Virus record (IMG/VR): IMGVR_UViG_3300047539_000055
Source: a virus
Taxonomy: Duplodnaviria > Caudoviricetes
DNA length: 64,000 bases
Strand: one strand, 5' to 3'
Made by a program: the position numbers and the translations under genes. Positions 2,225-14,758 of this stretch are shown here, in pieces. Position 1 is the first letter of the stretch, and each line of letters opens with the position of its first letter. Under the pieces are notes generated by a model. It did not search any database, had not been told where the DNA came from, and saw only the letters and a list, made by a program, of their open reading frames with translations.

Positions 2225-2451
2225 CAATCGCTGATGCTGTTGATAAGAACGAAACAAGCATTCAAATTGGAGATTATGTAAAATTTGAATTGTTATATCA
2301 TCAAATTGTTGCTGGCGTAATCATTGATATTACTGTCAAAAGGATTCTTACAGTTGTTATTCTTCGCCTAGATAAACAGTATTTCCGAAGAAATTATTTG
2401 GTTGAAAAAATAACTGACGCCGAGTATATGTTGTTCATGCTGGAGCAATAA
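2221..2451 (+). CDS. Small SH3/KOW-like paralog-family protein
   Basis: DKN..I.IGD.V N-terminus; C-terminal ITDAEYMLFMLE motif. Confidence 0.65.
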   Translation: MTIADAVDKNETSIQIGDYVKFELLYHQIVAGVIIDITVKRILTVVILRLDKQYFRRNYLVEKITDAEYMLFMLEQ

Positions 2452-2711
2452 TGAAGCAAAAATATTACGACAAGAATAGCAGGGAACTGAAAATTGGTCA
2501 ACTTGTTGCGACTAGATATAATAATGCTATCGGAAAACTCATTAGAATTTCTCCAGATGATGGAGAAATTTATTGTTATCTTAAATATTACGCGGTCGCT
2601 CAGCGGCCCCACTGGAAGTCCAAGTATAAAGATAATATTGATGGTTGGTATCCAGATGGCTTGACCATTATAACAGATGAAGAGGCAATGTTATGGATGT
2701 TGGAGAACTAA
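2451..2711 (+). CDS. Small SH3/KOW-like paralog-family protein
   Basis: DKNSRELKIGQLV...ITDEEAMLWMLEN. Confidence 0.65.
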   Translation: MKQKYYDKNSRELKIGQLVATRYNNAIGKLIRISPDDGEIYCYLKYYAVAQRPHWKSKYKDNIDGWYPDGLTIITDEEAMLWMLEN

Positions 2712-3118
2712 TGATAAAAGAAATGAAAGGATTTTGCTTCTTGTTTAGCGAAACCGGAACCGAAGGTGGTTGGTGGGCAATGCAAGAAGATGGCTTCATG
2801 GATAAAGATGGAATCCACTGTAGTTATGATGGATTGCGTGAACTTCAAGAGAACGATGATTTTACCGTGTATACTGAAGACGGAAGTATATTATGGCAAG
2901 GTATCATTCATCAAGATAAGAAAACTAATCTAATTCCACGACAAGTGCTTAACAAAAAAGGTAAGATAGTAAATAGTCGAAAGTGGAAACAACAAATGGT
3001 GTCCTATATGTGGGTACATTGGTTACAAGCCAAGGTTGACCCTGAAGTTTGGAATGAATTATTTGCTGGTAATAAACGATGCTTACTCAAAAGGGAAAAC
3101 GATGAAACAGTATCCTGA
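2711..3118 (+). CDS. Hypothetical protein
   Basis: GGAG RBS before MIKEMKG; FSETGTEGGWWAMQ motif. Confidence 0.7.
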   Translation: MIKEMKGFCFLFSETGTEGGWWAMQEDGFMDKDGIHCSYDGLRELQENDDFTVYTEDGSILWQGIIHQDKKTNLIPRQVLNKKGKIVNSRKWKQQMVSYMWVHWLQAKVDPEVWNELFAGNKRCLLKRENDETVS

Positions 3119-3701
3119 AATCGACGGCAGTAACAAAGCACCAATTGGTGCCTCTTGCTTGGCATTTGTCAAGTATGATGGTAGCAATTTGCGATGGGAA
3201 TGGTCGTCTAAAAAGGGATGGTATAAATTTGGGACTAGAACTCGACTTTTTGATCATACTGATGAAATTTTTGCAGAAGCGATCCCGCTATTTCAGGACA
3301 CACTTGGGCCAGAACTTGAAAGACGAATCAAGGAGATTGAACGTGGTATACAGAATGCAATTGTTTTTACTGAATTTTTTGGTCAAAATAGTTTTACAGG
3401 CATCCACAATCCAACCGATACAAAAGAGTTGAGATTGTTTGACGTAAATCTCTACAAGCGTGGTATAATGAAGCCACGACAGTTTTTGAAGAATTTTGAT
3501 GATTTACCATTTTCCGCACAAGTAGTTTACGATGGAACACTCAACCAGGATTTCATTAGCGATGTTCGTAATGGTGTTTATTCTGTGGTTGAGGGAGTCG
3601 TTGCCAAGGGCGATGATTTTATGTGCAAAATCAAAACAAATACATACTTGACCAAATTGAAGGAGACTTATCATGACGGATGGAAAAATTACTGGGAATA
3701 A
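3102..3701 (+). CDS. RNA ligase 2-like adenylyltransferase (compact)
   Basis: Motif I KYDGSN, then FGTR, FTEFFG, LFDV, EGVV and KIK in canonical ligase order. Confidence 0.7.
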   Translation: MKQYPEIDGSNKAPIGASCLAFVKYDGSNLRWEWSSKKGWYKFGTRTRLFDHTDEIFAEAIPLFQDTLGPELERRIKEIERGIQNAIVFTEFFGQNSFTGIHNPTDTKELRLFDVNLYKRGIMKPRQFLKNFDDLPFSAQVVYDGTLNQDFISDVRNGVYSVVEGVVAKGDDFMCKIKTNTYLTKLKETYHDGWKNYWE

Positions 3702-3939: not shown

Positions 3940-4169
3940 TTATTAATTTTGAAAGAATTAAAAAAGCCTCAAACGCAATACATCCAAGACAAAAACATCA
4001 TTACGAAATATCGTTTGAATATTGGACGCTTGCACGAACCGAAAGCCGTACATTAGCATTTATTGTTTGGTGGTTGCTTAAAATATGGAGATTCGGCAAC
4101 GGATGTTGCTTGGCAATATTTCTTGACAAACATTATGTTGAAACGATAAGACCAAAAAGAGAATTTTGA
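3936..4169 (+). CDS. Hypothetical protein
   Basis: AAGGA RBS; ATGA overlap. Confidence 0.55.
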   Translation: MIINFERIKKASNAIHPRQKHHYEISFEYWTLARTESRTLAFIVWWLLKIWRFGNGCCLAIFLDKHYVETIRPKREF

Positions 4170-4179
4170 AAGGATAATT

Positions 4180-4452
4180 ATGAAATTGTTAAGTACCCTA
4201 TTACTCATTTTTATATGTGCTTGCGGGAGTTCAAAATCATGGAATCCCGAAGTTAAAAAGGCTGTATATATCCGTCAATATTGTGTTGCGGTTAAAACTG
4301 TAAAAGCAGGAAAAAATTGGAGTGAGTATTCTAACGGCGAGGTTTTTCACGAAGCAGGAAAGTTCTATCAATGTCCAAATATAGATAATCAGATATTTTT
4401 AGGTGATGATGAAATTCAACCAACTGATCCACAAGTAATTTACAATCAATAA
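4180..4452 (+). CDS. Putative lipoprotein
   Basis: MKLLSTLLLIFICAC signal with lipobox-like Cys. Confidence 0.6.
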   Translation: MKLLSTLLLIFICACGSSKSWNPEVKKAVYIRQYCVAVKTVKAGKNWSEYSNGEVFHEAGKFYQCPNIDNQIFLGDDEIQPTDPQVIYNQ

Positions 4453-4462
4453 GGATCAAAAT

Positions 4463-4828
4463 ATGACCACGGAACAAAAAGAGAAATCAACGCAATGTCG
4501 CAGTATGAAATGTGTAAATTGTGGAGATTTGCGAAGTGTCCACATCCTCTACTTCAAGATGATACTGGCGATTATTTTGCACACAAGTTATTTCAAGACT
4601 ATGGCGGATTTACACCTGAAATCAGTAAAAGTATTGGATGGAATCGTGAAAAATAAACTAATCAAATTTTGGCAAGCATGTTGCACTTTTATAAAGGCAT
4701 TTCAAGGTCCAGTTATGTGTGATATTGAACGAGATATGGCTGAAGATCGTAGGAAATGTCTAAAAGACGAAAATTTTAACAACTTTTTGCCATTATTGAC
4801 AAAAAACCCCTTGACAAATGATAAATAA
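4463..4828 (+). CDS. Hypothetical protein (frame uncertain)
   Basis: AAGGA RBS; ORF runs into the downstream promoter. Confidence 0.4.
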   Translation: MTTEQKEKSTQCRSMKCVNCGDLRSVHILYFKMILAIILHTSYFKTMADLHLKSVKVLDGIVKNKLIKFWQACCTFIKAFQGPVMCDIERDMAEDRRKCLKDENFNNFLPLLTKNPLTNDK

Positions 4829-4839
4829 CTGTGTATACT
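4811..4839 (+). promoter_or_regulatory. Sigma70-type promoter for the leader and tRNA array
   Basis: TTGACA (4811-16), 17-nt spacer, TATACT (4834-39). Confidence 0.85.
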
Positions 4840-4860
4840 AATAATTGAAGGTTAGGAAAA

Positions 4861-4947
4861 ATGACGCTATTTAGTACATCTCGCCCCACACTTGCAAACT
4901 ACCGCTCATGCGCTAGTCAATTTGCACCATTTGGTGGAGGCATGTAA
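4861..4947 (+). CDS. 28-aa leader peptide MTLFSTSRPTLANYRSCASQFAPFGGGM of a putative attenuator
   Basis: AGGTTAGGA RBS ~20 nt after the -10 box; stop codon abuts the antiterminator arm. Confidence 0.75.
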   Translation: MTLFSTSRPTLANYRSCASQFAPFGGGM

Positions 4948-4979
4948 GAGGTTTGGATAGTAGTATTTTTCCAGCCTCT
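4947..4979 (+). promoter_or_regulatory. Putative antiterminator hairpin
   Basis: AGAGGTTTGGA (4947-57) pairs with TCCAGCCTCT (4970-79) and sequesters the 5' arm of the terminator. Confidence 0.65.
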
Positions 4980-5008
4980 AGCCAAAAGTTAGAGGCTTTT
5001 GAGTTTTT
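4973..5008 (+). terminator. Intrinsic terminator (attenuator) just before the first tRNA
   Basis: AGCCTCTAGC-CAAAA-GTTAGAGGCT followed by TTTGAGTTTTT. Confidence 0.75.
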
Positions 5009-5022
5009 GGAGTAAAAATTTT

Positions 5023-5100
5023 GGGTCATGGGACTGCTTGGCGTGGTCGTCTCACTTGCAATGAGAAATTCGAAGGGTTCAAATCCCTTATGATCCACCA
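5023..5100 (+). tRNA. tRNA-Ala(TGC)
   Basis: Cloverleaf, G3:U70, loop CTTGCAA, encoded CCA. Confidence 0.92.
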
Positions 5101-5115
5101 AAATTTTGTTGTAAT

Positions 5116-5203
5116 GCAAGTATGGGTGAGTGGCTAAAACCGTTTGTCTGTAAAACAAATGCCCCCTGGGGCTACGAAAGTTCGAATCTTTCTGCTTGCA
5201 CCA
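5116..5203 (+). tRNA. tRNA-Tyr(GTA)
   Basis: Type II cloverleaf, loop CTGTAAA, CCA. Confidence 0.93.
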
Positions 5204-5210
5204 AGTTTTG

Positions 5211-5310
5211 TAGCATGTTCGTCTAAGGCGCTGAATTTCTCGTAAGCCTTGAGAATTCGAGGACATTTATCTCAGGATAAATAATGCAACTTCGCCAACT
5301 GCACATGCTG
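5211..5310 (+). ncRNA. Unassigned structured spacer RNA
   Basis: Closing stem TAGCATGT/ACATGCTG with internal hairpins GAATTTCTC/GAGAATTC and ATTTATC/GATAAAT. Confidence 0.5.
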
Positions 5311-5324
5311 TGAAGAGAATTTAT

Positions 5325-5399
5325 GGGTCGGTAGCTTAATTGGGAAAGCAGTTCTTTCGCAAAGAACAAGATGGAGTTCAACTCTCCCCGTATCCACCA
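5325..5399 (+). tRNA. tRNA-Ala(CGC), irregular acceptor/T stem
   Basis: Loop TTCGCAA, G3:U70, CCA; bulge in the acceptor stem. Confidence 0.8.
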
Positions 5400-5474
5400 A
5401 TTTGCTGGGCGTAAGCAAGTAGGCCACAAATTTATTTGAGTCGATTCGGTGTTCAGCAAAATATTAGAGGTACA

Positions 5475-5654
5475 ATGCGAAGAGAAACAGAAGATGGTTA
5501 TCGCAGAACGAATAGAGAAATGGTGCAAGAACCAAAAGGGTCTGGAATTTGTCCCTGTGACCGATTTTGGGTAAGAAGTGGTTCTAAATGTCCTTTCTGT
5601 GGTTGTAGAATGGATTTGAAGAAGACTATGAAAAAGATTGTTGTAAAAGATTAA
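5475..5654 (+). CDS. Small Cys-rich (zinc-ribbon-like) protein
   Basis: AGAGG RBS; CPC...CPFCGC. Confidence 0.55.
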   Translation: MRRETEDGYRRTNREMVQEPKGSGICPCDRFWVRSGSKCPFCGCRMDLKKTMKKIVVKD

Positions 5655-5658
5655 ATAT

Positions 5659-5733
5659 GGTCCCATAGCTCAATGGACAGAGTACCGGTTTACGAAACCG
5701 ATGATACAGATTCGACTTCTGTTGGGATCACCA
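5659..5733 (+). tRNA. tRNA-Arg(ACG)
   Basis: Loop TTACGAA, CCA. Confidence 0.9.
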
Positions 5734-5760
5734 AGTTTAGAATGAGGATACACTATTACA

Positions 5761-6327
5761 ATGATAAAAATAAGACAATGTAAACATTGTAATGTTCAAA
5801 TAGAAAGTGGAGTTTCAGATTTTGCCAATCATACTAGATGGTGTGCTAAAAATCCAAAGGTTGCAGATTATAAAAAAGATAATGCAACACGAGGACAAAA
5901 AATAATTGCATCAAGATTTGGTACATTTCAAAATTATGATGTAAAATGCAACGTATGTTCTAAATGTTTTCAAGTCAATGAACGAGAAAAAATTTTTCCA
6001 AGTAAGAAAAAATATTTCTGTTCTAAAATATGTGCTTGCTCTGTTGGTGGAAAGGCAAGAGCAATCAAACATTACTTGGCAGACTCAGATGTAAGTTATT
6101 TAGTGGTGGCTTGGAGATATCATGAAAGAAAATGTGTTGTTTGTAAAGAAGTAAATGTTGTTGCTGTTCATCATTTAAATGGAAATCATGATGATAATGA
6201 TCCAAAAAATTTAGTTCCGTTATGTCCTACGCATCATACATATATGCATAGCAGACATAAAACAAAGATTATCAATATAGTCAATGACTATGTTGTAAAG
6301 AAATGGAGTTTGAAATATGGGTCGTAG
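5761..6327 (+). CDS. HNH homing endonuclease
   Basis: CVVC...VHHLNGNHDDNDPKNLVPLCPTHH; N-terminal zinc fingers. Confidence 0.85.
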   Translation: MIKIRQCKHCNVQIESGVSDFANHTRWCAKNPKVADYKKDNATRGQKIIASRFGTFQNYDVKCNVCSKCFQVNEREKIFPSKKKYFCSKICACSVGGKARAIKHYLADSDVSYLVVAWRYHERKCVVCKEVNVVAVHHLNGNHDDNDPKNLVPLCPTHHTYMHSRHKTKIINIVNDYVVKKWSLKYGS

Positions 6328-6398
6328 GACTACTTGGGGTGGTCGCTTTCATGGCATGAAAGATACTCAGGTGGGTTCAATTCCCACACGATCCACCA
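6319..6398 (+). tRNA. tRNA-Ala(GGC)
   Basis: Loop ATGGCAT, G3:U70, CCA. Confidence 0.88.
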
Positions 6399-6400
6399 AG

Positions 6401-6498
6401 TTTGTACGATGATGTGGAAACACATTGACGGTGGTAATCAATTCGGAATGTGAGGGAGGACACCACCCGATAGCACATAAAACGAATCGTCGTACAAA
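6401..6498 (+). ncRNA. Unassigned structured spacer RNA
   Basis: 13-bp closing stem TTTGTACGATGAT/ATCGTCGTACAAA, GAAA-tetraloop hairpin, GTGGT/ACCAC stem. Confidence 0.55.
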
Positions 6499-6502
6499 AA
6501 TT

Positions 6503-6585
6503 TTAGCTCCGAATACTACCTTACGCTTCTGGCCTCTCACACAGTCATGCCATTGAAAGTTGAAGTATTGGAAAATCGGAACTAA
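6503..6585 (+). ncRNA. Unassigned structured spacer RNA
   Basis: TTAGCTCCGA/TCGGAACTAA and AATACT/AGTATT stems. Confidence 0.4.
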
Positions 6586-6590
6586 GTTTT

Positions 6591-6668
6591 AAGCAATTGT
6601 TATGACAAGCAAACCTAGACTTTGAATCTATGGTAATACCAAAAAGTTTTACAGTCATAAAATTGTTT
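6591..6668 (+). ncRNA. Stem element presenting a Gln(TTG)-like anticodon hairpin
   Basis: AAGCAATT/AATTGTTT and TTATGAC/GTCATAA enclose TAGA-CTTTGAA-TCTA. Confidence 0.45.
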
Positions 6669-6675
6669 GTAATAC

Positions 6676-6748
6676 GTCCCAGATTGTTGGGTCATGAGTT
6701 GGATTTGAAGCCAAACATGGACAGGTTCAATTCCTGTTAGGGACGCCA
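6676..6748 (+). tRNA. Degenerate tRNA-like gene (Gln TTG-like, 8-nt loop)
   Basis: Intact T arm ACAGG-TTCAATT-CCTGT, GTCCC/GGGAC acceptor, G73-CCA; TTGG/CCAA stem with loop ATTTGAAG; poor D arm. Confidence 0.55.
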
Positions 6749-6762
6749 AATTTAGTAGTTTT

Positions 6763-6846
6763 GCCCGAATGGTGGAATGGCAGACATAATGCGCTTAGAA
6801 CGCATCGCCGCAAGGCATGGGGGTTCAAATCCCTCTTCGGGTACCA
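6763..6846 (+). tRNA. tRNA-Leu(TAG)
   Basis: Type II, loop CTTAGAA, CCA. Confidence 0.93.
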
Positions 6847-6862
6847 AATTTGAAGGAGTGTT

Positions 6863-7078
6863 ATGAAACTAATTCAGGCACTAATCAAGCAAGGAAATAG
6901 CCATATGATTACTTGGCTACCAGCAGATCGAAGATTGAAACTCGGCTGTGAAATTGAACTTGATAAAGATGTAAACGATAGATGGAAGATTAGTGAATTG
7001 TATATGACCACGGATTCAGAAAATATTCAACGTGGTTGGGGTTTGAATCTTCCAAAGAGTGTAAGAACTGAGTTATAA
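6863..7078 (+). CDS. Hypothetical protein
   Basis: AAGGAG RBS. Confidence 0.7.
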   Translation: MKLIQALIKQGNSHMITWLPADRRLKLGCEIELDKDVNDRWKISELYMTTDSENIQRGWGLNLPKSVRTEL

Positions 7079-7222
7079 AATCTCAGTAGGGGTCGGGCAC
7101 GTAAATCCTCTAGCATTTGGCAGTGATCCGTTCCGTTGTATAATTGGCTGGCCACCTTTGATATGATGCAGGGATTTGAGTAAGTCCTATAAATGTTCCG
7201 TCTAGCGACGGCTTAGTTTTAT

Positions 7223-7296
7223 CAGGGGGTAGTGTAGAGGCAGCATCCAAGTTCTGGAAACTTGTGGCGGAATATCGTAATTTCCTTCCCTGACCA
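7223..7296 (+). tRNA. tRNA-Pro(TGG), atypical
   Basis: C1:G72, A73, loop TCTGGAA (C33, A37), T loop ATCGTAA. Confidence 0.72.
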
Positions 7297-7388
7297 ATTT
7301 TACTGTTGTATGCCGTATCTTTATACTGACTTGGGTAATACGCCTTGTGATCGGTTCAAGACTAACATATGACGGTGGCGCTATAAAC

Positions 7389-7463
7389 GGACTTGTAGCT
7401 CCAAGGTAGAGCGCTTCCCTGAAGAGGAAGGCGGTGCTGGTTCAAGTCCAGTCAAGTCCACCA
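7389..7463 (+). tRNA. tRNA-Phe(GAA)
   Basis: Loop CTGAAGA, CCA. Confidence 0.93.
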
Positions 7464-7482
7464 ATTTTAAGAGGAAAGGAAA

Positions 7483-7629
7483 ATGAAATTGTTCAATCAT
7501 GACGAAGATATACAGTATTTCAGAGAGGTAGCGAATACTGTGCCGAAAAAGAAAGAATATTGTGAAAAAACAATTAAGTTGCTTGAAGAAGCACACGCAA
7601 TTGTAACAGCAAAGAAAAAGTATTGCTAA
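7483..7629 (+). CDS. Small hypothetical protein (48 aa)
   Basis: GAGGAAAGGA RBS; MKLFNHDEDIQYFREV... Confidence 0.55.
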   Translation: MKLFNHDEDIQYFREVANTVPKKKEYCEKTIKLLEEAHAIVTAKKKYC

Positions 7630-7650
7630 ATATCTGTAAATAAATTTTAT

Positions 7651-7727
7651 CCGGGTGTAGCGCAGCCTGGTAGCGCGTTCCGTTTGGGGCGGAAAAGTCG
7701 CAAGTTCGAATCTTGCCACCTGGACCA
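7651..7727 (+). tRNA. tRNA-Pro(TGG)
   Basis: Canonical cloverleaf, loop TTTGGGG. Confidence 0.95.
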
Positions 7728-7776
7728 TTTTGAATCAGTACATTCGAGTTTTTCATCTCCGAGCATAAATACTTGC

Positions 7777-8388
7777 ATGAAAAACAATATGAAAGAAACA
7801 GAATACTATAAAAGTGGGAGACAATTAATAAGTGTTGTAAACGCTGGAAAAATCGGTAATTCTGTTAGTTCGCAAGGAGCAAAAAAATTTAGGGAAGAAT
7901 ATGATACAAACCCAAATATTTGCGCTAACTGTTCAACCGCTTTGAATTTTTACAAACGAACATATAAATTTTGTTCGTCATCATGTGCGGCAACATTTAA
8001 TAACACGCATAAAACAACAGGAACGCGCAGATCAAAACTTGAAACTTTTCTGGAGGAACAAATTCGTAATACCTATCCAAATTTGGAACTACTTTGTAAC
8101 GATAAAACAGCAATCAATTCAGAATTGGATTTTTATTTTCCTGAATTGAATCTTGCCATAGAACTTAATGGTATATTACATTTTGAACCAATTTATGGAT
8201 CAAAAAAATTAGAACAGATTCAAAGTAATGATACTAAAAAATACTTTCTCTGTTCACAAAAGCAAATTAATTTGGCAATTATTGATTCTTCGACCTGTAA
8301 GTATTTGAACCAAAGTTCTAAAGACAAATATTGGAAGTTGATTGAAAATATTATTCAAAAAGCAAAGTTATATCGGGGTATAGTGTAG
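7777..8388 (+). CDS. PD-(D/E)xK/Vsr-like putative homing endonuclease
   Basis: [20 protein letters not shown]; CxxC...FCSSSC; start reassigned downstream of the tRNA. Confidence 0.75.
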
Positions 8389-8447
8389 TGGTCGCACCCA
8401 AATTTCGGGAATTTGTAGAGAGGTTTCGATTACCTCTACCCCGACCA
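8374..8447 (+). tRNA. tRNA-Pro(CGG)
   Basis: Loop TTCGGGA, C1:G72, CCA. Confidence 0.88.
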
Positions 8448-8459
8448 AAATTTAGAAAT

Positions 8460-8535
8460 GCCGTGATAGCTCAGTTGGTAGAGCATTGGTTTTGTAAACC
8501 AAATGTCGCAGGTTCGATCCCTGTTCGCGGCTCCA
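8460..8535 (+). tRNA. tRNA-Thr(TGT)
   Basis: Canonical cloverleaf, loop TTTGTAA. Confidence 0.95.
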
Positions 8536-8539
8536 AAGT

Positions 8540-8701
8540 TTCCGTCGCATTGTGGATGTGACACAAGTGGCTTGGCAGGTGTTCGGGTCATAAGCTCATC
8601 GAAGATTGTTGTGGACACGATAACAATTGGGCGCTCAGGAAGCCAATGAGATAATGATTTCACTGTAATCTTAGCGGATCACAGAATAATCATCGACGGA
8701 A
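8540..8701 (+). ncRNA. Unassigned ~160-nt multibranch spacer RNA
   Basis: Closing stem TTCCGTCG/CGACGGAA; TGGCTT/AAGCCA; ATTGTT/AACAAT. Confidence 0.55.
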
Positions 8702-8709
8702 TTGATTTA

Positions 8710-8783
8710 GCGGGTATATATCAATGGTAGATTAGAACTTTGCCTAAGTTCAGATATGGATTCGAGTTCCGTTACCCGCTCCA
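8710..8783 (+). tRNA. tRNA-Gly(GCC)
   Basis: GCGGGTA/TACCCGC, U73, loop TTGCCTA. Confidence 0.88.
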
Positions 8784-8797
8784 AAGTTTAGATTCAC

Positions 8798-8872
8798 GGC
8801 GCTGTAGCAAAATGGTAATGCAAGGGCCTGCAAAGCCTTTACTCGGTGGTTCGATTCCACTCAGCGCCTCCA
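8798..8872 (+). tRNA. tRNA-Cys(GCA)
   Basis: Loop CTGCAAA, U73. Confidence 0.93.
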
Positions 8873-9092
8873 ATTTGGGCAGAGGAATGATAACGACTGC
8901 CATAGACGACAGCTAAAAAGTGAAGTTTGGAACATCTGAGTAGGCCCACCGAAAAGCCAAATGATGTACTAAGTAAGTTGCGCGGATAATCAAAGCGTTA
9001 TCTTACTGCCATGCATTTTTATTGCAATTATGCATGGCAGGACATAAAATTTAAGGGAATTACGCAGTTAACTCCCTTGGAGAAATGAACCC

Positions 9093-9635
9093 ATGAAACT
9101 CCGGTTTTCCATAGACGAAGCCGAGGCCGCACGTGATGAGTGGGGTTTTAACTGCGGACCCGCAGCGGTTGCCTCTATCTGCGGACTTTCGCTGGCTGAG
9201 TTGCGTCCACATCTGGGTGATTTTGAACTGAAGGGGTATACAAATCCTACCCTCATGGCTCAGATTCTCAAGAGCGTCGGCGCTAAGGTGATCGAGTTTG
9301 GCAGGCTTAACTGGCGGTTTGAGATGGAGCGCACAGGGAGAGCGCCGTGGCCCAGATATGGCCTTGCGCGGGTTCAATGGGAAGGACCGTGGACGAAAGA
9401 CGGTGTGCCGATGGCCGCCCGTTACCGAGCAACGCATTGGGTCGGAGCGAGCTATGTAAACCTAGACAACATTGGCATCTGGGATGTGAACTGTTTGAAC
9501 AACGGGACCGGATGGGTTGGGCTTGGTGAGTGGACTAACACGCTGGTTCCGTGGCTATTGAAGGAACTTTATCCACGCGCAAGTGGCAAGTGGCACTTGA
9601 CGCACATCGTCGAAATCGAACAGCCAAGGGACTGA
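9093..9635 (+). CDS. Papain-fold (C39-like) peptidase, GC-rich insert
   Basis: NCGPAAVA...THWV...WD Cys/His/Asp arrangement; GC visibly higher than flanks. Confidence 0.6.
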   Translation: MKLRFSIDEAEAARDEWGFNCGPAAVASICGLSLAELRPHLGDFELKGYTNPTLMAQILKSVGAKVIEFGRLNWRFEMERTGRAPWPRYGLARVQWEGPWTKDGVPMAARYRATHWVGASYVNLDNIGIWDVNCLNNGTGWVGLGEWTNTLVPWLLKELYPRASGKWHLTHIVEIEQPRD

Positions 9636-9660
9636 AGTATATAAGTCCCAAATTTAATAC

Positions 9661-9734
9661 GCGGTTATGGTGTAGTGGTAACATTTTTGGCTTCCACCCA
9701 AACGTCGTCGGTTCAAATCCGACTAGCCGCTCCA
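9661..9734 (+). tRNA. tRNA-Gly(TCC)
   Basis: Loop CTTCCAC, U73. Confidence 0.93.
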
Positions 9735-9748
9735 AAGTTTAGATTTAT

Positions 9749-9841
9749 GTTGGGGAACTCTAAGTAGATTGAGCGCGGTCTGCAAAACCGTTGAGAACCG
9801 TAAAATCGGTCTAGTGGGCGCAAGTCCCATCCCCAACTCCA
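9749..9841 (+). tRNA. tRNA-Cys(GCA) with long variable arm
   Basis: GTTGGGG/CCCCAAC, U73-CCA, loop CTGCAAA, V arm ACCG/CGGT, T loop CGCAAGT. Confidence 0.78.
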
Positions 9842-9851
9842 TTTTAGAAAT

Positions 9852-9937
9852 GCGTTTGTGGTGGAACGGCATACACGATGGTCTAAGAAGCCATTTCCAG
9901 TAATGGATTGAAGGTTCAAATCCTTTCAGACGCACCA
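9852..9937 (+). tRNA. tRNA-Leu(AAG)
   Basis: Type II, loop CTAAGAA. Confidence 0.9.
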
Positions 9938-9956
9938 AGATTTAGAAAGAAATACA

Positions 9957-10181
9957 ATGGGATATTATGAAGACAATTCGGGTATTGATGATGATGCCAA
10001 ATATCAATGCATGAAACGTGATTGTCTACAAGAAATGTTTGGGTATCAACTATTACCCATTGTTCACGAAGTGCTAAAAGACGATCCAACACACCCATAT
10101 GGTGTAAGTGGAACTGGGAAATTTAAATGTAACATACGAAGATGTTGCTATTGTAGAGGAACGGTGAAGAAAATTGAATAA
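9957..10181 (+). CDS. Small Cys-rich hypothetical protein
   Basis: ORF between tRNAs. Confidence 0.55.
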   Translation: MGYYEDNSGIDDDAKYQCMKRDCLQEMFGYQLLPIVHEVLKDDPTHPYGVSGTGKFKCNIRRCCYCRGTVKKIE

Positions 10182-10356
10182 AGAAAATCTAGTTGCATTT
10201 TTGTATATGTTGATGCGTGATTCACTACCGACAGGAGAAGTTGCAAGATTGGTAGTGGAAGTTGAAAAAACAAAGGGTCAAGAAATAGCATTTACTAGCA
10301 AAGGTTTAGAAGCATACGCAAGAGAATTATCGGATAGATTGCTTTCTGATAAATAG
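10174..10356 (+). CDS. Hypothetical protein
   Basis: LVAFLYMLMRD.LP.G.V pattern typical of small phage proteins. Confidence 0.65.
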   Translation: MNKENLVAFLYMLMRDSLPTGEVARLVVEVEKTKGQEIAFTSKGLEAYARELSDRLLSDK

Positions 10357-10362
10357 TTTTAT

Positions 10363-10452
10363 GGAGAGTTGGGTGAGTGGTTTATACCAAGACTTTGCTA
10401 AAGTCTCGAACCTGAAAGGGTTCCACAGGTTCAAATCCTGTACTCTCCTCCA
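10363..10452 (+). tRNA. tRNA-Ser(GCT)
   Basis: Type II, loop TTGCTAA. Confidence 0.93.
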
Positions 10453-10472
10453 TTTTGAAAAGGAGAAATTTA

Positions 10473-10673
10473 ATGGACAACAGAGAATATTTGAATTATG
10501 AAAATATTGATATTCCAGAATTAACTGATTATCGAGGCACTTTAAAAGAATTCGCTACAATTGTATTAGCGTTAATGAAGGAATATGGTCCTAATGCCAA
10601 CATAAGCATTCACCCAACAATTGACGAAACAGCGGAAGTGTCAATTAGAATTGACAAAAGGCTGAAGAGGTAA
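10473..10673 (+). CDS. Hypothetical protein
   Basis: AGGAG RBS before MDNREY. Confidence 0.65.
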   Translation: MDNREYLNYENIDIPELTDYRGTLKEFATIVLALMKEYGPNANISIHPTIDETAEVSIRIDKRLKR

Positions 10674-10853
10674 ATGAAAGAAGTATGGCAAGTTGATGTT
10701 GGTTATTTTTGTGCAGGAATTATAACTGAAAATGAAAAAGTAACAGTTGCCGCACCGATACTAAATTGGGCTATAGGTAAATCAGTTACTTCTGTTGAAA
10801 CTTGGATAAGAAACAAAAAAGGTAAGATTGTAAAAAGCAAGATGGAAGAGTGA
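10674..10853 (+). CDS. Hypothetical protein (59 aa)
   Basis: GAGG RBS; YFCAGI...AAPILNWAIGK; stop lies inside tRNA-Ser(GGA). Confidence 0.65.
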   Translation: MKEVWQVDVGYFCAGIITENEKVTVAAPILNWAIGKSVTSVETWIRNKKGKIVKSKMEE

Positions 10854-10939
10854 GCGGAATGGCATCGCACCTGCTTGGAAAGCAGACTCACGTTGGATAA
10901 AACCATCGTGTGCAGGTTCAAGTCCTGTCTCTTCCGCCA
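10844..10939 (+). tRNA. tRNA-Ser(GGA)
   Basis: Type II, loop TTGGAAA, G73. Confidence 0.9.
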
Positions 10940-10945
10940 AATATT

Positions 10946-11251
10946 ATGAACATAACACCCAATGCGTGGAAGCATATTGAAGAAATTGTAAATGATAAAT
11001 GCCTCAGAGTTGGTATTAGAGGCGGCGGGTGTTCAGGCTTATCTTATGTATTTCAGCTTGATACTCCAAGAACAAGGGATTTAATTTTTGAACTGAATAA
11101 TATTAAGGTTTTGGTTGATCCAAAATCGAATGTGTATTTGAAAGATGTGACACTTGATTATGAAGAGACGTTGATGCGTCAAGGTTTCAATATTATCAAT
11201 CCACGAGCAACAAAAAGTTGTGGATGCGGATCAAGTTTTTCAATTGGGTAG
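10946..11251 (+). CDS. iscA: Iron-sulfur cluster A-type carrier (IscA/HesB family)
   Basis: GGGCSGLSY and C-terminal SCGCGSSF signatures. Confidence 0.92.
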   Translation: MNITPNAWKHIEEIVNDKCLRVGIRGGGCSGLSYVFQLDTPRTRDLIFELNNIKVLVDPKSNVYLKDVTLDYEETLMRQGFNIINPRATKSCGCGSSFSIG

Positions 11252-11333
11252 TTAATTGTAGCGGTTCTACAACCTTGTTTCGAAAACAAGCGGTACCGAA
11301 AGGTATGGAAGTCGGCATTTCAGCTACCCGCCA
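11246..11333 (+). tRNA. tRNA-Ser(CGA) with 8/4 cloverleaf
   Basis: 8-bp acceptor GGGTAGTT/AGCTACCC, 4-bp T stem, 6-bp D stem, loop TTCGAAA, G73. Confidence 0.82.
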
Positions 11334-11396
11334 TTTTAGGACTTATCAAATTCGATTCCTCGTCTTGCATAAATACATATAGGAGAATAATTTTAT

Positions 11397-12098
11397 ATGT
11401 ATTATTTGATTTACGAAACAACAAATTTGATAAATGGAAATTTTTATGTTGGTGCTCATCAAACTAAAAATTTGAATGATGGTTACTTAGGGTCAGGTAA
11501 ATATTTTCGTCATGCATTAAAGAAATATGGAGACTCAAACTTTTCTCGTAAAATATTATTTGAATTTGATAATCAACACGATATGTTCGTCAAAGAGAAT
11601 GAAATTGTTGATGAAGAGTTTGTATCTCGTAAAGATACTTACAATATTAAACTGGGCGGAAGTGGAGGATTTGATCATCTAAATTATGGGACGGCGAAAT
11701 CAAAAAATCTAAGATTTGATCCAGAATATCAAAAAAATATTTCTTGGCTTTCACATCCAGAGAAATATGGAGTTGCTGATGTTCAAGAATGGAGAAGAAG
11801 AGGACAAAAGAAAATACAAGAATTAATTGATATAGGTAAATTTAATCCTACAAAATGGTTTGATGAACATCCTAAAATACGGCAAAAAGGATTAGACAAA
11901 ATGAACTCGCCAGAGGCGATGACAAAAAGAATTAAAACCTTTCACGCAATGGGGCATCAACAAGGAAGCAAAAATTCACAATATGGAACTTGTTGGATAA
12001 CTAATGAAATAGAAAATAAAAAGATCAAAAAAGAAAATATTTCAGAATGGTTTAATAAAGGTTGGAAATTTGGTCGAATAAAAACGGAGAAGTGCTAG
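11397..12098 (+). CDS. GIY-YIG (Seg-like) homing endonuclease
   Basis: YLIYETTNLINGNFYVGAH...YLGSG...YNIKLGG. Confidence 0.88.
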   Translation: MYYLIYETTNLINGNFYVGAHQTKNLNDGYLGSGKYFRHALKKYGDSNFSRKILFEFDNQHDMFVKENEIVDEEFVSRKDTYNIKLGGSGGFDHLNYGTAKSKNLRFDPEYQKNISWLSHPEKYGVADVQEWRRRGQKKIQELIDIGKFNPTKWFDEHPKIRQKGLDKMNSPEAMTKRIKTFHAMGHQQGSKNSQYGTCWITNEIENKKIKKENISEWFNKGWKFGRIKTEKC

Positions 12099-12180
12099 AG
12101 TGGCTGAATAGACTGGTCCTGAAAACCAGCGAACCTGTGAATAACAGGTTCCGTGGGTTCAAATCCCACCTTCTCCTCCA
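12086..12180 (+). tRNA. tRNA-Ser(TGA)
   Basis: Type II, loop CCTGAAA (C33). Confidence 0.88.
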
Positions 12181-12192
12181 ATACCAAAATGT

Positions 12193-12459
12193 ATGAAAAA
12201 GAAATTAGCTGACACTTTCGATAAAAACGGAACACCAATCAACAAGGGCGATCTTGTGTTTTTTAATCTTTGGTCTGTGCGTTCTTCTACATGCGAAAAA
12301 ATAGTTTTAGGCAAAATTAAAAGGATTGATGGCGCGTACATATTTGTTCAAAATGTAAAAAATAAAAAAGATATTTCAGAGTTGTACTCAACTGAAATTG
12401 AAAAAGCCAGTGATGAAAAGGCAATGTTATGGATGTTTGAGAATGTTATGGATGTTTGA
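12193..12459 (+). CDS. Small SH3/KOW-like paralog-family protein
   Basis: DKNGTPINKGDLV...SDEKAMLWMFEN. Confidence 0.7.
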   Translation: MKKKLADTFDKNGTPINKGDLVFFNLWSVRSSTCEKIVLGKIKRIDGAYIFVQNVKNKKDISELYSTEIEKASDEKAMLWMFENVMDV

Positions 12460-12505
12460 GAATAAATAAGTCCTTTAGAATGAGAAAATAAATTTTGGTT
12501 TTTAC

Positions 12506-12534
12506 TTGCTTTTTAGACCGATCTGCTGTATACT
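12506..12534 (+). promoter_or_regulatory. Sigma70-type promoter before the two CAT tRNAs
   Basis: TTGCTT, 17-nt spacer, TATACT. Confidence 0.65.
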
Positions 12535-12574
12535 ATATATAGTTCTATTGAATGCAAGGAAGCATAAATATTAT

Positions 12575-12650
12575 AGCGGGGTGGTAGCGTAGGTCATACA
12601 CTAGGCTCATAACCTCAGAGACAAGGGTGCAAATCCCTTCCCCGCAACCA
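12575..12650 (+). tRNA. tRNA-Met(CAT), initiator-like
   Basis: AGCGGGG/CCCCGCA with unpaired 1:72, loop CTCATAA. Confidence 0.8.
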
Positions 12651-12656
12651 ACTTTT

Positions 12657-12732
12657 GCCAGTGAGGACGAAGTGGATAGTCGCAGCCCTCATAAAGCTGT
12701 CGTAGTTGATTCGAGTTCAACCACTGGCACCA
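12657..12732 (+). tRNA. tRNA-Met/Ile2(CAT)
   Basis: GCCAGTG/CACTGGC, loop CTCATAA. Confidence 0.82.
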
Positions 12733-12747
12733 ATTTAGAAAGGCAAT

Positions 12748-12963
12748 ATGTATAACGTACAACAAGCAATAGACGAATCCAATAAAATGCGATCATCTGG
12801 TTGTATATGTGATCCTCTTAGTTGTTCTAGTGCGATACCTCCAAAATGTCCAGTGCATTGTTCTTGCATGAAAAATGGACGAGCAATTCCAAATAGCAAA
12901 AAGATAGATGGTCAATGCAAAATTTGTGGTAATTGGCCTCTCTATAACGAAAGCGACTTATGA
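12748..12963 (+). CDS. Small Cys-rich hypothetical protein
   Basis: CIC...CPVHC...CKICG. Confidence 0.6.
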   Translation: MYNVQQAIDESNKMRSSGCICDPLSCSSAIPPKCPVHCSCMKNGRAIPNSKKIDGQCKICGNWPLYNESDL

Positions 12964-13208
12964 TCCTCTTCAAAGGTTCTCCCAAACCAAAAGATGGCGA
13001 AGTAAAAATCACAGAAAAATTTGCGTTTTTGCCAAAGCAACTCAAAATTGCCTACAGCGTATATGATCATGACGGCTGGCACTATCAAGCTATTATATGG
13101 CTGGAACGCTATGTTGAAACTAAACTATACCATCGTGATGGACAATATTGGCATTTGATGAAACGTGAAAGATACAATGACGCTGTTCTAAATAAGTTTG
13201 CGAGTTGA
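12960..13208 (+). CDS. Hypothetical protein
   Basis: KFAFLP...IIWLERY pattern; ATGA overlap. Confidence 0.65.
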   Translation: MILFKGSPKPKDGEVKITEKFAFLPKQLKIAYSVYDHDGWHYQAIIWLERYVETKLYHRDGQYWHLMKRERYNDAVLNKFAS

Positions 13209-13372
13209 AAGGGCTGTATGATACTTATCAAAAAGAGGAAGAAATCTCAGTCGGGCGAAATCATCTCATAGACCAACGGCTTCCGCCTATGTAGATACCC
13301 CTCGGTATTTTGCGGGTAAAGTGTGTGCACACCATGCGGCCAATGGGCTGATCGTGCAGCAGAGCGCCGTTT

Positions 13373-13771
13373 GTGAATATAACACTTGATATGCACGATC
13401 ACATGTGCTATGTTATCGTGCATATTCATTGTGACGGAGCCGCAGATTGCGAGGCAGCGGAAGTTGCTTATGAATTAGGATTTACTATCATCGCACATCC
13501 TGGTTATCTTCCAAAAAATCCATCATGGAAAGGTTCTCGCGGAAGTTTTGACAAGAATAATATTACTCACCCCGAAAAACCATTTCTAATTCGTGATCAC
13601 GATATTGTTGATGCCTCTGAAGTGTTGATTGCTACTCCTGCCCAAAAGAATGAAATTCTAAGGTCTGGAACGTGGGCTACTATCCGTTATGGTGAAAAAA
13701 GTAAACCTGTTATTATCATTTTTCCTGATGGAGAATGTGAAGTTAGAGGTAAAAGTCTATGCAAAAAGTAA
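13373..13771 (+). CDS. SLOG/DprA-Smf-like protein, N-terminus apparently missing
   Basis: RDHDIVDASEVLIA.P....RSGTWATIRY...KPVIIIFPDG; lacks the usual N-terminal GFTG strand. Confidence 0.6.
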   Translation: MNITLDMHDHMCYVIVHIHCDGAADCEAAEVAYELGFTIIAHPGYLPKNPSWKGSRGSFDKNNITHPEKPFLIRDHDIVDASEVLIATPAQKNEILRSGTWATIRYGEKSKPVIIIFPDGECEVRGKSLCKK

Positions 13772-14019
13772 CGACACAAGGTTACGAAGTTCTGGCGCGA
13801 TTGCTAAGTGTTGATCCATTATATCAAATAAAAATTGCTGAAACATATTACATTACTACTACACTAATTGAACCTCATAGTTTTATATGGGATATGCTAA
13901 AAATTCGTGGAAAGAATAACCATTTAAAATCATTCGCTATTATTGCATCATCCCACACAGTAAGAGGCGTATGGAAGAAAGCCTGTAAAGTTTTGAATGG
14001 CAAGGTTAACAATGTTTGA
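13759..14019 (+). CDS. Hypothetical protein, paralog of 682..897
   Basis: Shared motifs with 682..897. Confidence 0.65.
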   Translation: MQKVTTQGYEVLARLLSVDPLYQIKIAETYYITTTLIEPHSFIWDMLKIRGKNNHLKSFAIIASSHTVRGVWKKACKVLNGKVNNV

Positions 14020-14758
14020 ACCTAAAGCACTAACAGAAAATCAAATCAACTTGTGTGAACAGACAATGAGTTCCAACACCTTTTATATGTTGGTTGGTAA
14101 TGCATTAGTCAATTCAAAACCACTCTCTGTTGTTCGTATGGGAGATGGAGAGCGACAATTATTGCACGCCGCAATGCAAAGTCCTATACATAATCAAGCA
14201 ACTATTGAAGAACAGGCTGATCCTATTGGCTGGCTAAAAAGAATGGGTTGCTATGGCATTTCAAATTCAGAACTTATTAATCGGTTGGGATGGGCCGCTG
14301 ACGAATGTTCTTATTTCGCCCCATCAATTTCTGGTATTCAATTAGATAATTTCAATCTGTACGATTTATTTCAACCTCGCACCAAATATGTAGACAATTT
14401 CTTTTGTAATGCTTGGACTGAAGAAATGAAGATTCAACTATTTAACACAGCTAAGCATGTTTTGTTTATTCATAGAAATACATCAGCGGCAGATGCTATG
14501 CAAATTCGTGCAAAATATGCATTGGATGTAAAGGTTACATATATCAAGCTGGAATCGTGGACACAATCAGAAGAAGTAATTGAAAAAGGTTCAAAAATTG
14601 AAGCCCCATTGGTTCTATTCAGTGCAGGGCCAGCATCCAAATACATTGGTCACAGAATAGCAACTTCTGGAATATCAAAGGTATCTCTTGATATTGGGAA
14701 CGCGGCTGATTATTGGTTGTTGAATGGTTTAAAGGATATTCCAAATGGTCGCAGATAA
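14012..14758 (+). CDS. GT-D-fold (DUF1792-like) glycosyltransferase
   Basis: SVVRMGDGE, SAGPASK and LDIG motifs. Confidence 0.7.
   Translation: MFEPKALTENQINLCEQTMSSNTFYMLVGNALVNSKPLSVVRMGDGERQLLHAAMQSPIHNQATIEEQADPIGWLKRMGCYGISNSELINRLGWAADECSYFAPSISGIQLDNFNLYDLFQPRTKYVDNFFCNAWTEEMKIQLFNTAKHVLFIHRNTSAADAMQIRAKYALDVKVTYIKLESWTQSEEVIEKGSKIEAPLVLFSAGPASKYIGHRIATSGISKVSLDIGNAADYWLLNGLKDIPNGRR

Follow-up and report, generated by a model that had tools for sequence, protein, structure and literature searches.

The 64,000-nucleotide (nt) stretch of viral DNA analyzed here (the window; IMG/VR record IMGVR_UViG_3300047539_000055, Caudoviricetes) carries a long array of transfer RNA (tRNA) genes preceded by a short leader at 4811–5007. 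We consider it likely that this leader is a ribosome-mediated (leader-peptide) transcription attenuator, which controls a phage tRNA array and not a biosynthetic operon. It consists of a promoter, a short open reading frame (ORF), and an intrinsic terminator directly before the first tRNA gene, and almost all codons of the ORF correspond to anticodons that the array encodes. About ten further arrays, in this phage and in others, show such a match, and the comparative signal spans at least five unrelated phage lineages. With somewhat less assurance, we think it probable that many large phages regulate their tRNA arrays by codon-matched leader attenuators, in which the loss of one tRNA would switch on its replacement.

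The positions of the leader elements are given in Table 1. The spacer of the promoter is conserved in relatives, and promoters of the window type also stand ahead of the leaders in L009, L008, L033, and others (L and G numbers are our own labels). The 25-nt version of the promoter occurs once in the window and once in L001, with a chance expectation of 0. The GAAGG of the ribosome-binding region is conserved in L001, and the start and stop of the leader ORF align with those of L001, the sole indel within the ORF being 3 nt long. This conservation of the ORF, with aligned ends and an indel that keeps the frame, counts in favor of an attenuator. A near-identical copy of the window leader is present in L019. 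The terminator is conserved in L001 and L019; its hairpin alone has −14.6 kcal/mol, and it ends 15 nt 5′ of the first tRNA. Terminators between the ORF and the first gene were found in the window (4973–4997), L033 (2382–2405), L001, L009, L008, L019, and L021. In every case, the terminator either precedes the first tRNA by 15–25 nt, on its strand, or stands ahead of the opening gene of an operon that includes tRNAs.

The 17 confident tRNA genes of the array are, in order, Ala-TGC, Tyr-GTA, Ala-CGC, Arg-ACG, Ala-GGC, Leu-TAG, Phe-GAA, Pro-TGG, Pro-CGG, Thr-TGT, Gly-GCC, Cys-GCA, Gly-TCC, Leu-AAG, Ser-GCT, Ser-GGA, and Ser-TGA, or, by amino acid, Ala (three), Tyr, Arg, Leu (two), Phe, Pro (two), Thr, Gly (two), Cys, and Ser (three). 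An initial annotation of this DNA had given the leader residues as Met, Thr, Leu, Phe, Ser, Arg, Pro, Ala, Tyr, Cys, Gln, and Gly plus one Asn, and this is what the ORF at 4861–4947 encodes. Every residue but the single Asn has a tRNA in the array, the partners of Gln and Met being weak tRNA calls only. Of the array inventory listed in that annotation, the 17 tRNAs are firm, while the Gln-like tRNA and the two CAT tRNAs exist as weak calls. tRNAs for Lys, Glu, Asp, Ile, Val, His, and Trp had been described as absent, and ARAGORN indeed finds none of them in the 64-kilobase (kb) window, nor any for Asn. By standard wobble, the array tRNAs can read 24 of the 27 post-start codons, and the leader samples 16 of the 18 distinct anticodons of the array. 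The exceptions are CCC and AAC, already noted as partnerless, and CAA, which had been counted as matched but falls outside the readable set; its sole candidate reader is the Gln-like tRNA at 6676–6748.

Taken alone, the window locus is suggestive. Random ORFs with the base composition of the leader reach 24 of 27 in-set residues with p = 0.013, or with p = 0.003 when all 10 amino-acid types are required as well. A comparison set of 1070 stop-free 27-codon windows of matched guanine-plus-cytosine (GC) content, drawn from the six reading frames of this DNA, has 15 members that reach 24 of 27, and 1 of these includes all types. The chance level of 1e-5 to 1e-6 estimated earlier was too optimistic, since such GC-matched controls put it at about 0.003–0.013 and weaken the single-locus case. 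The significance of the match is drawn from the comparative data, in which swaps of leaders and arrays within genomes control for composition.

Leaders and their arrays within and between genomes

By exact-protein look-up, the window was found to be 100% identical over 11.8 kb to JGI contig Ga0562382_00127, which has 353,395 base pairs (bp). The upstream part of this genome, L033, contains a second leader, of the Lys/Asn type, about 15.2 kb before the window start, as had been predicted from the residues missing in the window leader and array. The array behind it encodes tRNAs for Lys (three), Asn, Asp, Trp, Glu (two), Gln, and Ile, and each of these 7 amino acids occurs in the leader, where together they account for 17 of 21 residues. 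When residues exclusive to one of the two array sets are counted, the window leader has 25 for its own array and 2 for the other, and the L033 leader has 2 for the window set and 17 for the Lys/Asn set (Fisher p = 1.5e-8). Since both leaders come from one genome, this comparison controls for genome composition.

A 360-kb relative, the IMG/VR contig that holds L001 and L021 and whose RNA ligase is 80% identical, has homologues of both leaders and both arrays, and the swap test gives Fisher p = 1.6e-6. Leader codons should co-vary with array content across phages if the initial annotation was right, and between these two phages they do. The L001 leader (11268–11357), the homologue of the window leader, has His codons together with a His tRNA, and it lacks Thr codons together with a Thr tRNA. 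The window shows the reverse, with Thr codons, a Thr tRNA, and no His. The Lys/Asn-type leader of L021, on the minus strand, is eight codons longer than that of L033 and has more Ser and Leu codons; its array has Ser and Leu tRNAs that are missing from the Lys/Asn array of the window genome.

A metagenome scan with the promoter pattern gave the contig L009, which within 6 kb has two arrays, each with a leader. In leader A (981–1067), a 20-residue run uses exactly the 11 amino acids of array A (Asn, Tyr, Ser, Asp, Gly, Thr, Leu, Glu, Pro, Ala, and Val), and leader B (5065–5136) contains a 14-residue run that uses exactly the 9 of array B (Trp, Ile, Lys, Gln, Cys, Met, Arg, His, and Phe). The two sets add up to all 20 amino acids. 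Because this split does not follow codon GC content, a simple composition effect is ruled out. Variants of leader B (L008, L048, and L053) permute Gln, Lys, His, Met, and Ile in a variable stretch, residues 4–12, which stays within the array set; the homologues thus keep composition, not order. Residues 12–19 are nucleotide-identical in all variants and form a hairpin. The within-genome swap tests have p = 1.5e-8, 1.6e-6, and 2.8e-4, and in the leader-by-array matrix no pairing other than that of a leader with its own array, or with a homologue of it, has complete coverage of the amino-acid types.

Three distant jumbo phages were reached via RNA ligase, and their leaders, which are not homologous to those above, were found by reading the regions 5′ of the arrays; a first leader finder, which required perfect stems and an ATG start, had missed them. 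Some of these leaders are rich in the few amino acids that their arrays serve, and others are broader (Table 1). Searched at the DNA level with the array region and two leaders, the phage collection gave no close cultured relative that has these leaders. A protein search with the RNA ligase returned only distant huge phages and Xanthomonas phage XacN1, whose tRNAs are dispersed among ORFs, and the exact terminator pattern matched, among viral contigs, only the contig of L001.

What we observed directly are the leader elements, their conservation, the correspondence of codons with anticodons, and the fit between each leader and its own array. The second leader, the co-variation, and the within-genome swaps support the reading of the initial annotation, that the leader senses the tRNAs which the operon can replace.

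Predicted RNA structures and the proposed switch

The RNA from 4845 to 5012 has a minimum folding energy of −54.2 kcal/mol (z = −3.5 against shuffles), with the terminator formed. In the untranslated window RNA, the predicted partner of the early ORF is the sequence around the stop codon, again with the terminator formed, and the ribosome-binding region at 4847–4857 is predicted to be paired with 4964–4972. Ribosome positions were modeled by truncating the RNA before the 3′ arm of the terminator and placing the footprint codon by codon; a kinetic switch is an assumption of this model. Equilibrium folding of the full leader with a modeled ribosome was set aside as a model of a kinetic switch; in it, 6 of 7 modules retain the terminator at minimum energy.

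Each of the eight modeled leaders (seven plus L033) has a predicted local antiterminator, of −13 to −28 kcal/mol, that pairs with the 5′ arm of the terminator. It is at least as stable as the terminator in most of them, and slightly weaker in L008 and at some stall positions in the window. The antiterminator persists with the modeled ribosome in the body of the ORF and is lost with the ribosome at the last 2–8 codons or the stop. In the window, its 5′ half spans the final codons, the stop codon, and 13 nt further, and its 3′ half includes the terminator 5′ arm. With the ribosome at codons 2–24, 9 of the 10 bases of this arm are predicted to be paired (−13 to −20 kcal/mol); the structure weakens in the model at codons 25–28 and is absent at the stop codon. 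The stop codon lies 20–30 nt upstream of the terminator stem, so a terminating ribosome can block the antiterminator only. A stall in the ORF should give read-through, and smooth translation should give termination.

Leader B shows compensatory differences between L009 and L008 in the two halves of its antiterminator. In L009, leaders A and B both have C-terminal tails that do not mirror the arrays, and these tails coincide with the 5′ half of the antiterminator. Across seven leaders, 121 of 139 codons are matched in the predicted sensing part, where a stalled ribosome would keep the antiterminator unblocked, compared with 19 of 37 in the tails (p = 1e-5).

In the mechanism that we propose, RNA polymerase would start at the promoter, and a ribosome would translate the 28-codon ORF behind it. 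If all codons are read promptly, the ribosome at the last codons or the stop would cover the 5′ half of the antiterminator, the terminator hairpin at 4973–4997 would form, and transcription would end before the first tRNA. If any sampled tRNA is scarce or uncharged, the ribosome would stall in codons 2 to about 24; the antiterminator at 4939–4983 would then capture the terminator 5′ arm, and the polymerase would enter the array that encodes the scarce tRNA. If the RNA is untranslated, the early ORF would pair with the antiterminator 5′ half and the terminator would form, following the logic of the four-segment trp leader. With 1–4 leader codons for each array amino acid, the leader would work like an OR gate with many inputs, and its feedback would be negative, since transcription of the array yields the tRNAs that the leader tests. 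Candidate triggers are the loss of host tRNAs, by anticodon nucleases or host shut-off, and a mismatch in codon demand late in infection. We infer translation of the ORF, the direction of the switch, and its physiological trigger; the path from stall to read-through to negative feedback fits the modeled RNA structures.

A number of points weigh against this mechanism. The single-locus statistic is modest (p = 0.003–0.013), and the binomial p values of the distant phages in Table 1 are for leader ORFs picked out of as many as four candidates at each locus. Terminators are weak or were not found in the GC-rich phages among the distant ones, G003 and G002; hairpins in the G005 phage lie outside the terminator-scan criteria. 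The full-length RNA prefers the terminator at equilibrium in 6 of 7 modules, so the switch must be kinetic, and folding cannot show kinetic switching; the ribosome footprint of +14 nt is likewise an assumption. The Lys/Asn leaders start about 7–9 nt after the predicted transcript start, with no clear Shine–Dalgarno sequence, and ribosome-binding sites vary among leaders. Sensitivity to a mild shortage is doubtful, with most amino acids present 1–3 times per leader. Some residues of the sensing part have no partner in the array (Asn in the window; Asn and Glu in L001; Val, Ser, and Ala in L033), and several arrays or single tRNAs have no leader, being promoter-driven directly or lying behind protein genes. 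The ‘type C’ leaders of small phages (L038, L055, L056, and L059) cover all types of their arrays yet hold many others, 15–17 amino acids in all, and they do not co-vary with array content. Finally, L041, a variant of a matching family, has visible tRNAs for Trp, Cys, Met, and Phe on the readable part of its contig, and its leader still holds Ile, Gln, His, and Arg codons.

The type C leaders that do not track their arrays, the L041 codons with no visible tRNA, and the presence of most codons only once or twice per leader are what one would expect if the short ORF and terminator report general translation capacity or transcription–translation coupling, with no sensing role for the codon match. 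We judge such a general sensor to be unlikely, however, because it leaves unexplained the nearly disjoint leader sets within one genome, with the swap-test p values given above, as well as the Pro/Leu-, Ala/Thr-, and Lys/Phe/Ser/Trp-rich leaders that stand before the corresponding arrays. The match could also arise by chance or from base composition, if GC-richer leaders encode Ala, Gly, Pro, and Arg beside arrays for GC-rich codons. The composition-matched random ORFs and the 15 of 1070 GC-matched windows leave room for this at the window alone. In L009, however, the split is independent of GC content, yet each leader follows its own array; about nine non-homologous leaders have p from 2e-2 to 6e-8; and the matched codons are concentrated in the structurally defined sensing part. 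Chance or composition is thus a very remote explanation.

A further reading takes the stretch from promoter through terminator as an independent small gene, for a structured small RNA or a micropeptide, with the array transcribed from other promoters; we hold this to be quite improbable. The 168-nt transcript does fold well (z = −3.5), the invariant hairpin of leader B would suit a structured RNA, and promoter-like sites are present within arrays. If the gene were separate, there would be no reason for the codons of each leader to be specific to its array, for homologues to shuffle residues while keeping composition, or for an antiterminator to overlap the stop codon, as in eight modeled leaders. 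The terminator also has a constant position and strand relative to the first tRNA or first operon gene. Attenuation of the tRNA array by a codon-matched leader is the explanation that we prefer.

Table 1. Features of the window leader and array, of the second leader in the same genome (L033), and of the leaders in distant jumbo phages.
Feature	Position	Strand	Remarks
Window: sigma-70-type promoter	4811..4839	+	Near consensus: TTGACA, 17 nt, TATACT; 11/12 consensus matches
Window: ribosome-binding region	4847..4857	+	Purine-rich; GAAGG then AGGA, 3–9 nt 5′ of ATG
Window: leader ORF	4861..4947	+	28 codons + TAA
Window: segment 1 (‘protector’)	4866..4889	+	Early ORF; predicted pairing with antiterminator 5′ half in untranslated RNA
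Window: antiterminator hairpin	4939..4983	+	Predicted fold; 5′ half 4939–4960, 3′ half 4967–4983
Window: intrinsic terminator	4973..5007	+	10-bp stem, 5-nt loop (4973–4997), then T-rich tract
Window: 17 confident tRNA genes	5023..12180	+	ARAGORN default; all above Rfam cut-off
Window: HNH genes inside array	5761–6327 and 7684–8388
Window: weak Gln-like tRNA	6676..6748	+	TTG in 8-nt anticodon loop, encoded CCA end; ARAGORN at lowered thresholds only
Window: tRNA-like gene, long variable arm	9749..9837	+	GCA (Cys-type) loop; Rfam tRNA-Sec model 40.5 bits, cut-off 47
Window: GIY-YIG type gene inside array	11397–12098
Window: two weak CAT tRNAs (Met or Ile2), array end	12575–12650 and 12657–12732	+	First has 30.3 bits in Rfam, cut-off 29; ARAGORN needs lowered thresholds for both
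L033: promoter, window type	2249–2277
L033: leader ORF	2292–2360		22 codons
L033: three-segment attenuator	2361–2371, 2381–2391, 2396–2405		11 nt directly 3′ of stop; its complement; repeat of its first ten bases, followed by T tract
L025: Pro/Leu-rich leader ORF	2891–2998		Array Pro (four), Leu (five); binomial p = 9e-5
L024: Ala/Thr-rich leader ORF with Asp		−	Array Ala (three), Cys, Asp (two), Thr (three); binomial p = 6e-8
L023: broader leader	2540–2656		17-tRNA array; binomial p = 2e-6
L028: leader ORF rich in exactly the array amino acids	2824–2925		Array Lys, Phe, Ser, Trp; binomial p = 6e-5
L027: broader leader		−	9 tRNAs, all 8 amino-acid types covered; binomial p = 0.02

Surroundings of the leaders and arrays

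Homing-endonuclease genes and other ORFs are interspersed among the tRNAs of the window array. The window, part of a large phage genome, also encodes a DNA polymerase of the T4 type and, shortly 5′ of the array, an RNA ligase. The RNA-ligase-family gene lies at 3036–3701, 1.1 kb upstream of the leader, an arrangement common to L001. A gene resembling those of Fe–S biogenesis (PF01521) is located at 10910–11251, between two Ser tRNAs. The 180-residue ORF at 9093–9635, also inside the array, has about 55% GC compared with 38% window-wide and no PHROG family match; it looks like a recent foreign insertion. In the relative L001, a tRNA at 13973–14050 has CACG in an 8-nt anticodon loop. L001 also has a bacterial class A RNase P RNA at 8132–8781 (118 bits, cut-off 100), 1.2 kb upstream of the RNA ligase and between tRNA arrays; no counterpart was found at threshold in the window.

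The spacer between the −35 and −10 regions of the promoter contains a 12-nt AT-rich block that is conserved in many phage contigs unrelated to one another (14 hits in metagenomes, 27 in viral contigs). Promoters that share it include those at window 4811, at L033 2249 and 14707/14839, and at many metagenome loci. Its conservation suggests a shared promoter class or a regulator binding site. At L033:14839–15822, L014, and L001:2956–3883, a window-type promoter is followed by ATG, CAC, TAG, and a long open frame. The amber codon is in-frame at codon 3, and tRNAs with CTA, TTA-like, and odd anticodons lie just downstream. The frame could be a gene dependent on suppressor tRNAs of the phage itself. 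About 5 kb ahead of the window, the tRNA region of its phage includes a complete GOLLD RNA (L033:12170–12654, 195 bits), which itself encloses a Lys-TTT tRNA call (12237–12308). Partial GOLLD matches at the ends of L001 (1–317) and L008 (1784–2080) also adjoin tRNA arrays.

Among the leader-B modules, the first tRNA gene (Trp) of L012, L037, L044, L046, and L051 diverges mid-gene from that of L009 and L039, and the next tRNA is about 770 nt further. This pattern suggests an intron or other mobile insertion in or beside the Trp tRNA of some of these modules. In the small phages (L038, L055, L056, L059, and L041), a window-type promoter and a leader–terminator unit precede a mixed operon of a short ORF, a metallophosphoesterase gene (DTHFGH motif), and 4–8 tRNAs. 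The last third of these leaders is conserved as peptide.

Relation to known attenuators and tRNA sensors

The architecture of the window leader has the testable defining features of leader-peptide attenuators, with the exclusivity of the antiterminator predicted by the model. As in trpL, hisL, leuL, pheL, thrL, and ilvL, a promoter-proximal short ORF carries regulatory codons tied to what the operon supplies. As in the attenuators of amino-acid operons, an intrinsic terminator stands before the first structural gene and is opposed by a predicted, ribosome-position-dependent antiterminator; the protector pairing predicted for the window RNA is that of the four-segment attenuators. The differences lie in the controlled genes, which are tRNAs and not enzymes, in the phage-borne location of the element, and in the number of inputs. 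thrL and ilvL sense two or three amino acids, whereas the phage leaders sample 7–11, mostly 1–3 times each and not in runs, and they do so at the level of isoacceptors, with up to 16 of 18 anticodons.

The pheM leader of pheST is an attenuator of an aminoacyl-tRNA synthetase operon that senses charged tRNA via leader codons. It resembles the window leader in controlling a component of the translation apparatus, but it has a single amino-acid specificity, a protein-gene target, and a chromosomal location. T-box riboswitches likewise sense tRNA status and choose between terminator and antiterminator upstream of translation-system genes. They bind uncharged tRNA directly, through a specifier codon and the T-box sequence and with no ribosome, whereas in the window a translatable ORF carries the codons. 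An Rfam scan of 4000–14000 at E up to 1 gave no leader family and no T-box, only tRNA-type and three chance-level hits, and over the whole window only tRNAs were found at the gathering threshold.

For decades, there has been debate over why phages carry tRNAs and what use they make of them. A switch driven by demand would account for dozens of tRNA genes being affordable to a phage, for the particular grouping of the arrays, and for how a defense that removes a single tRNA could be answered. Full-text literature searches found no codon-matched leader or attenuator before a phage tRNA array. Phage tRNA genes counter tRNA-targeting host defenses (van den Berg et al. 2023, PMC10264068; Burman et al. 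2024, PMC11464382). In the parts of these two papers considered here, the subject is the function of phage tRNAs, not their control, and they offer a reason for on-demand tRNA replacement. If our proposal is correct, this would be the first known case of leader-peptide attenuation controlling tRNA genes and a natural many-input sensor of the tRNA pool. The leaders would then be compact natural sensors for single tRNA species, usable as reporters of tRNA availability. Classical attenuation would gain a new class of targets, the tRNA genes, and many inputs, and a known regulatory principle would thereby be extended.

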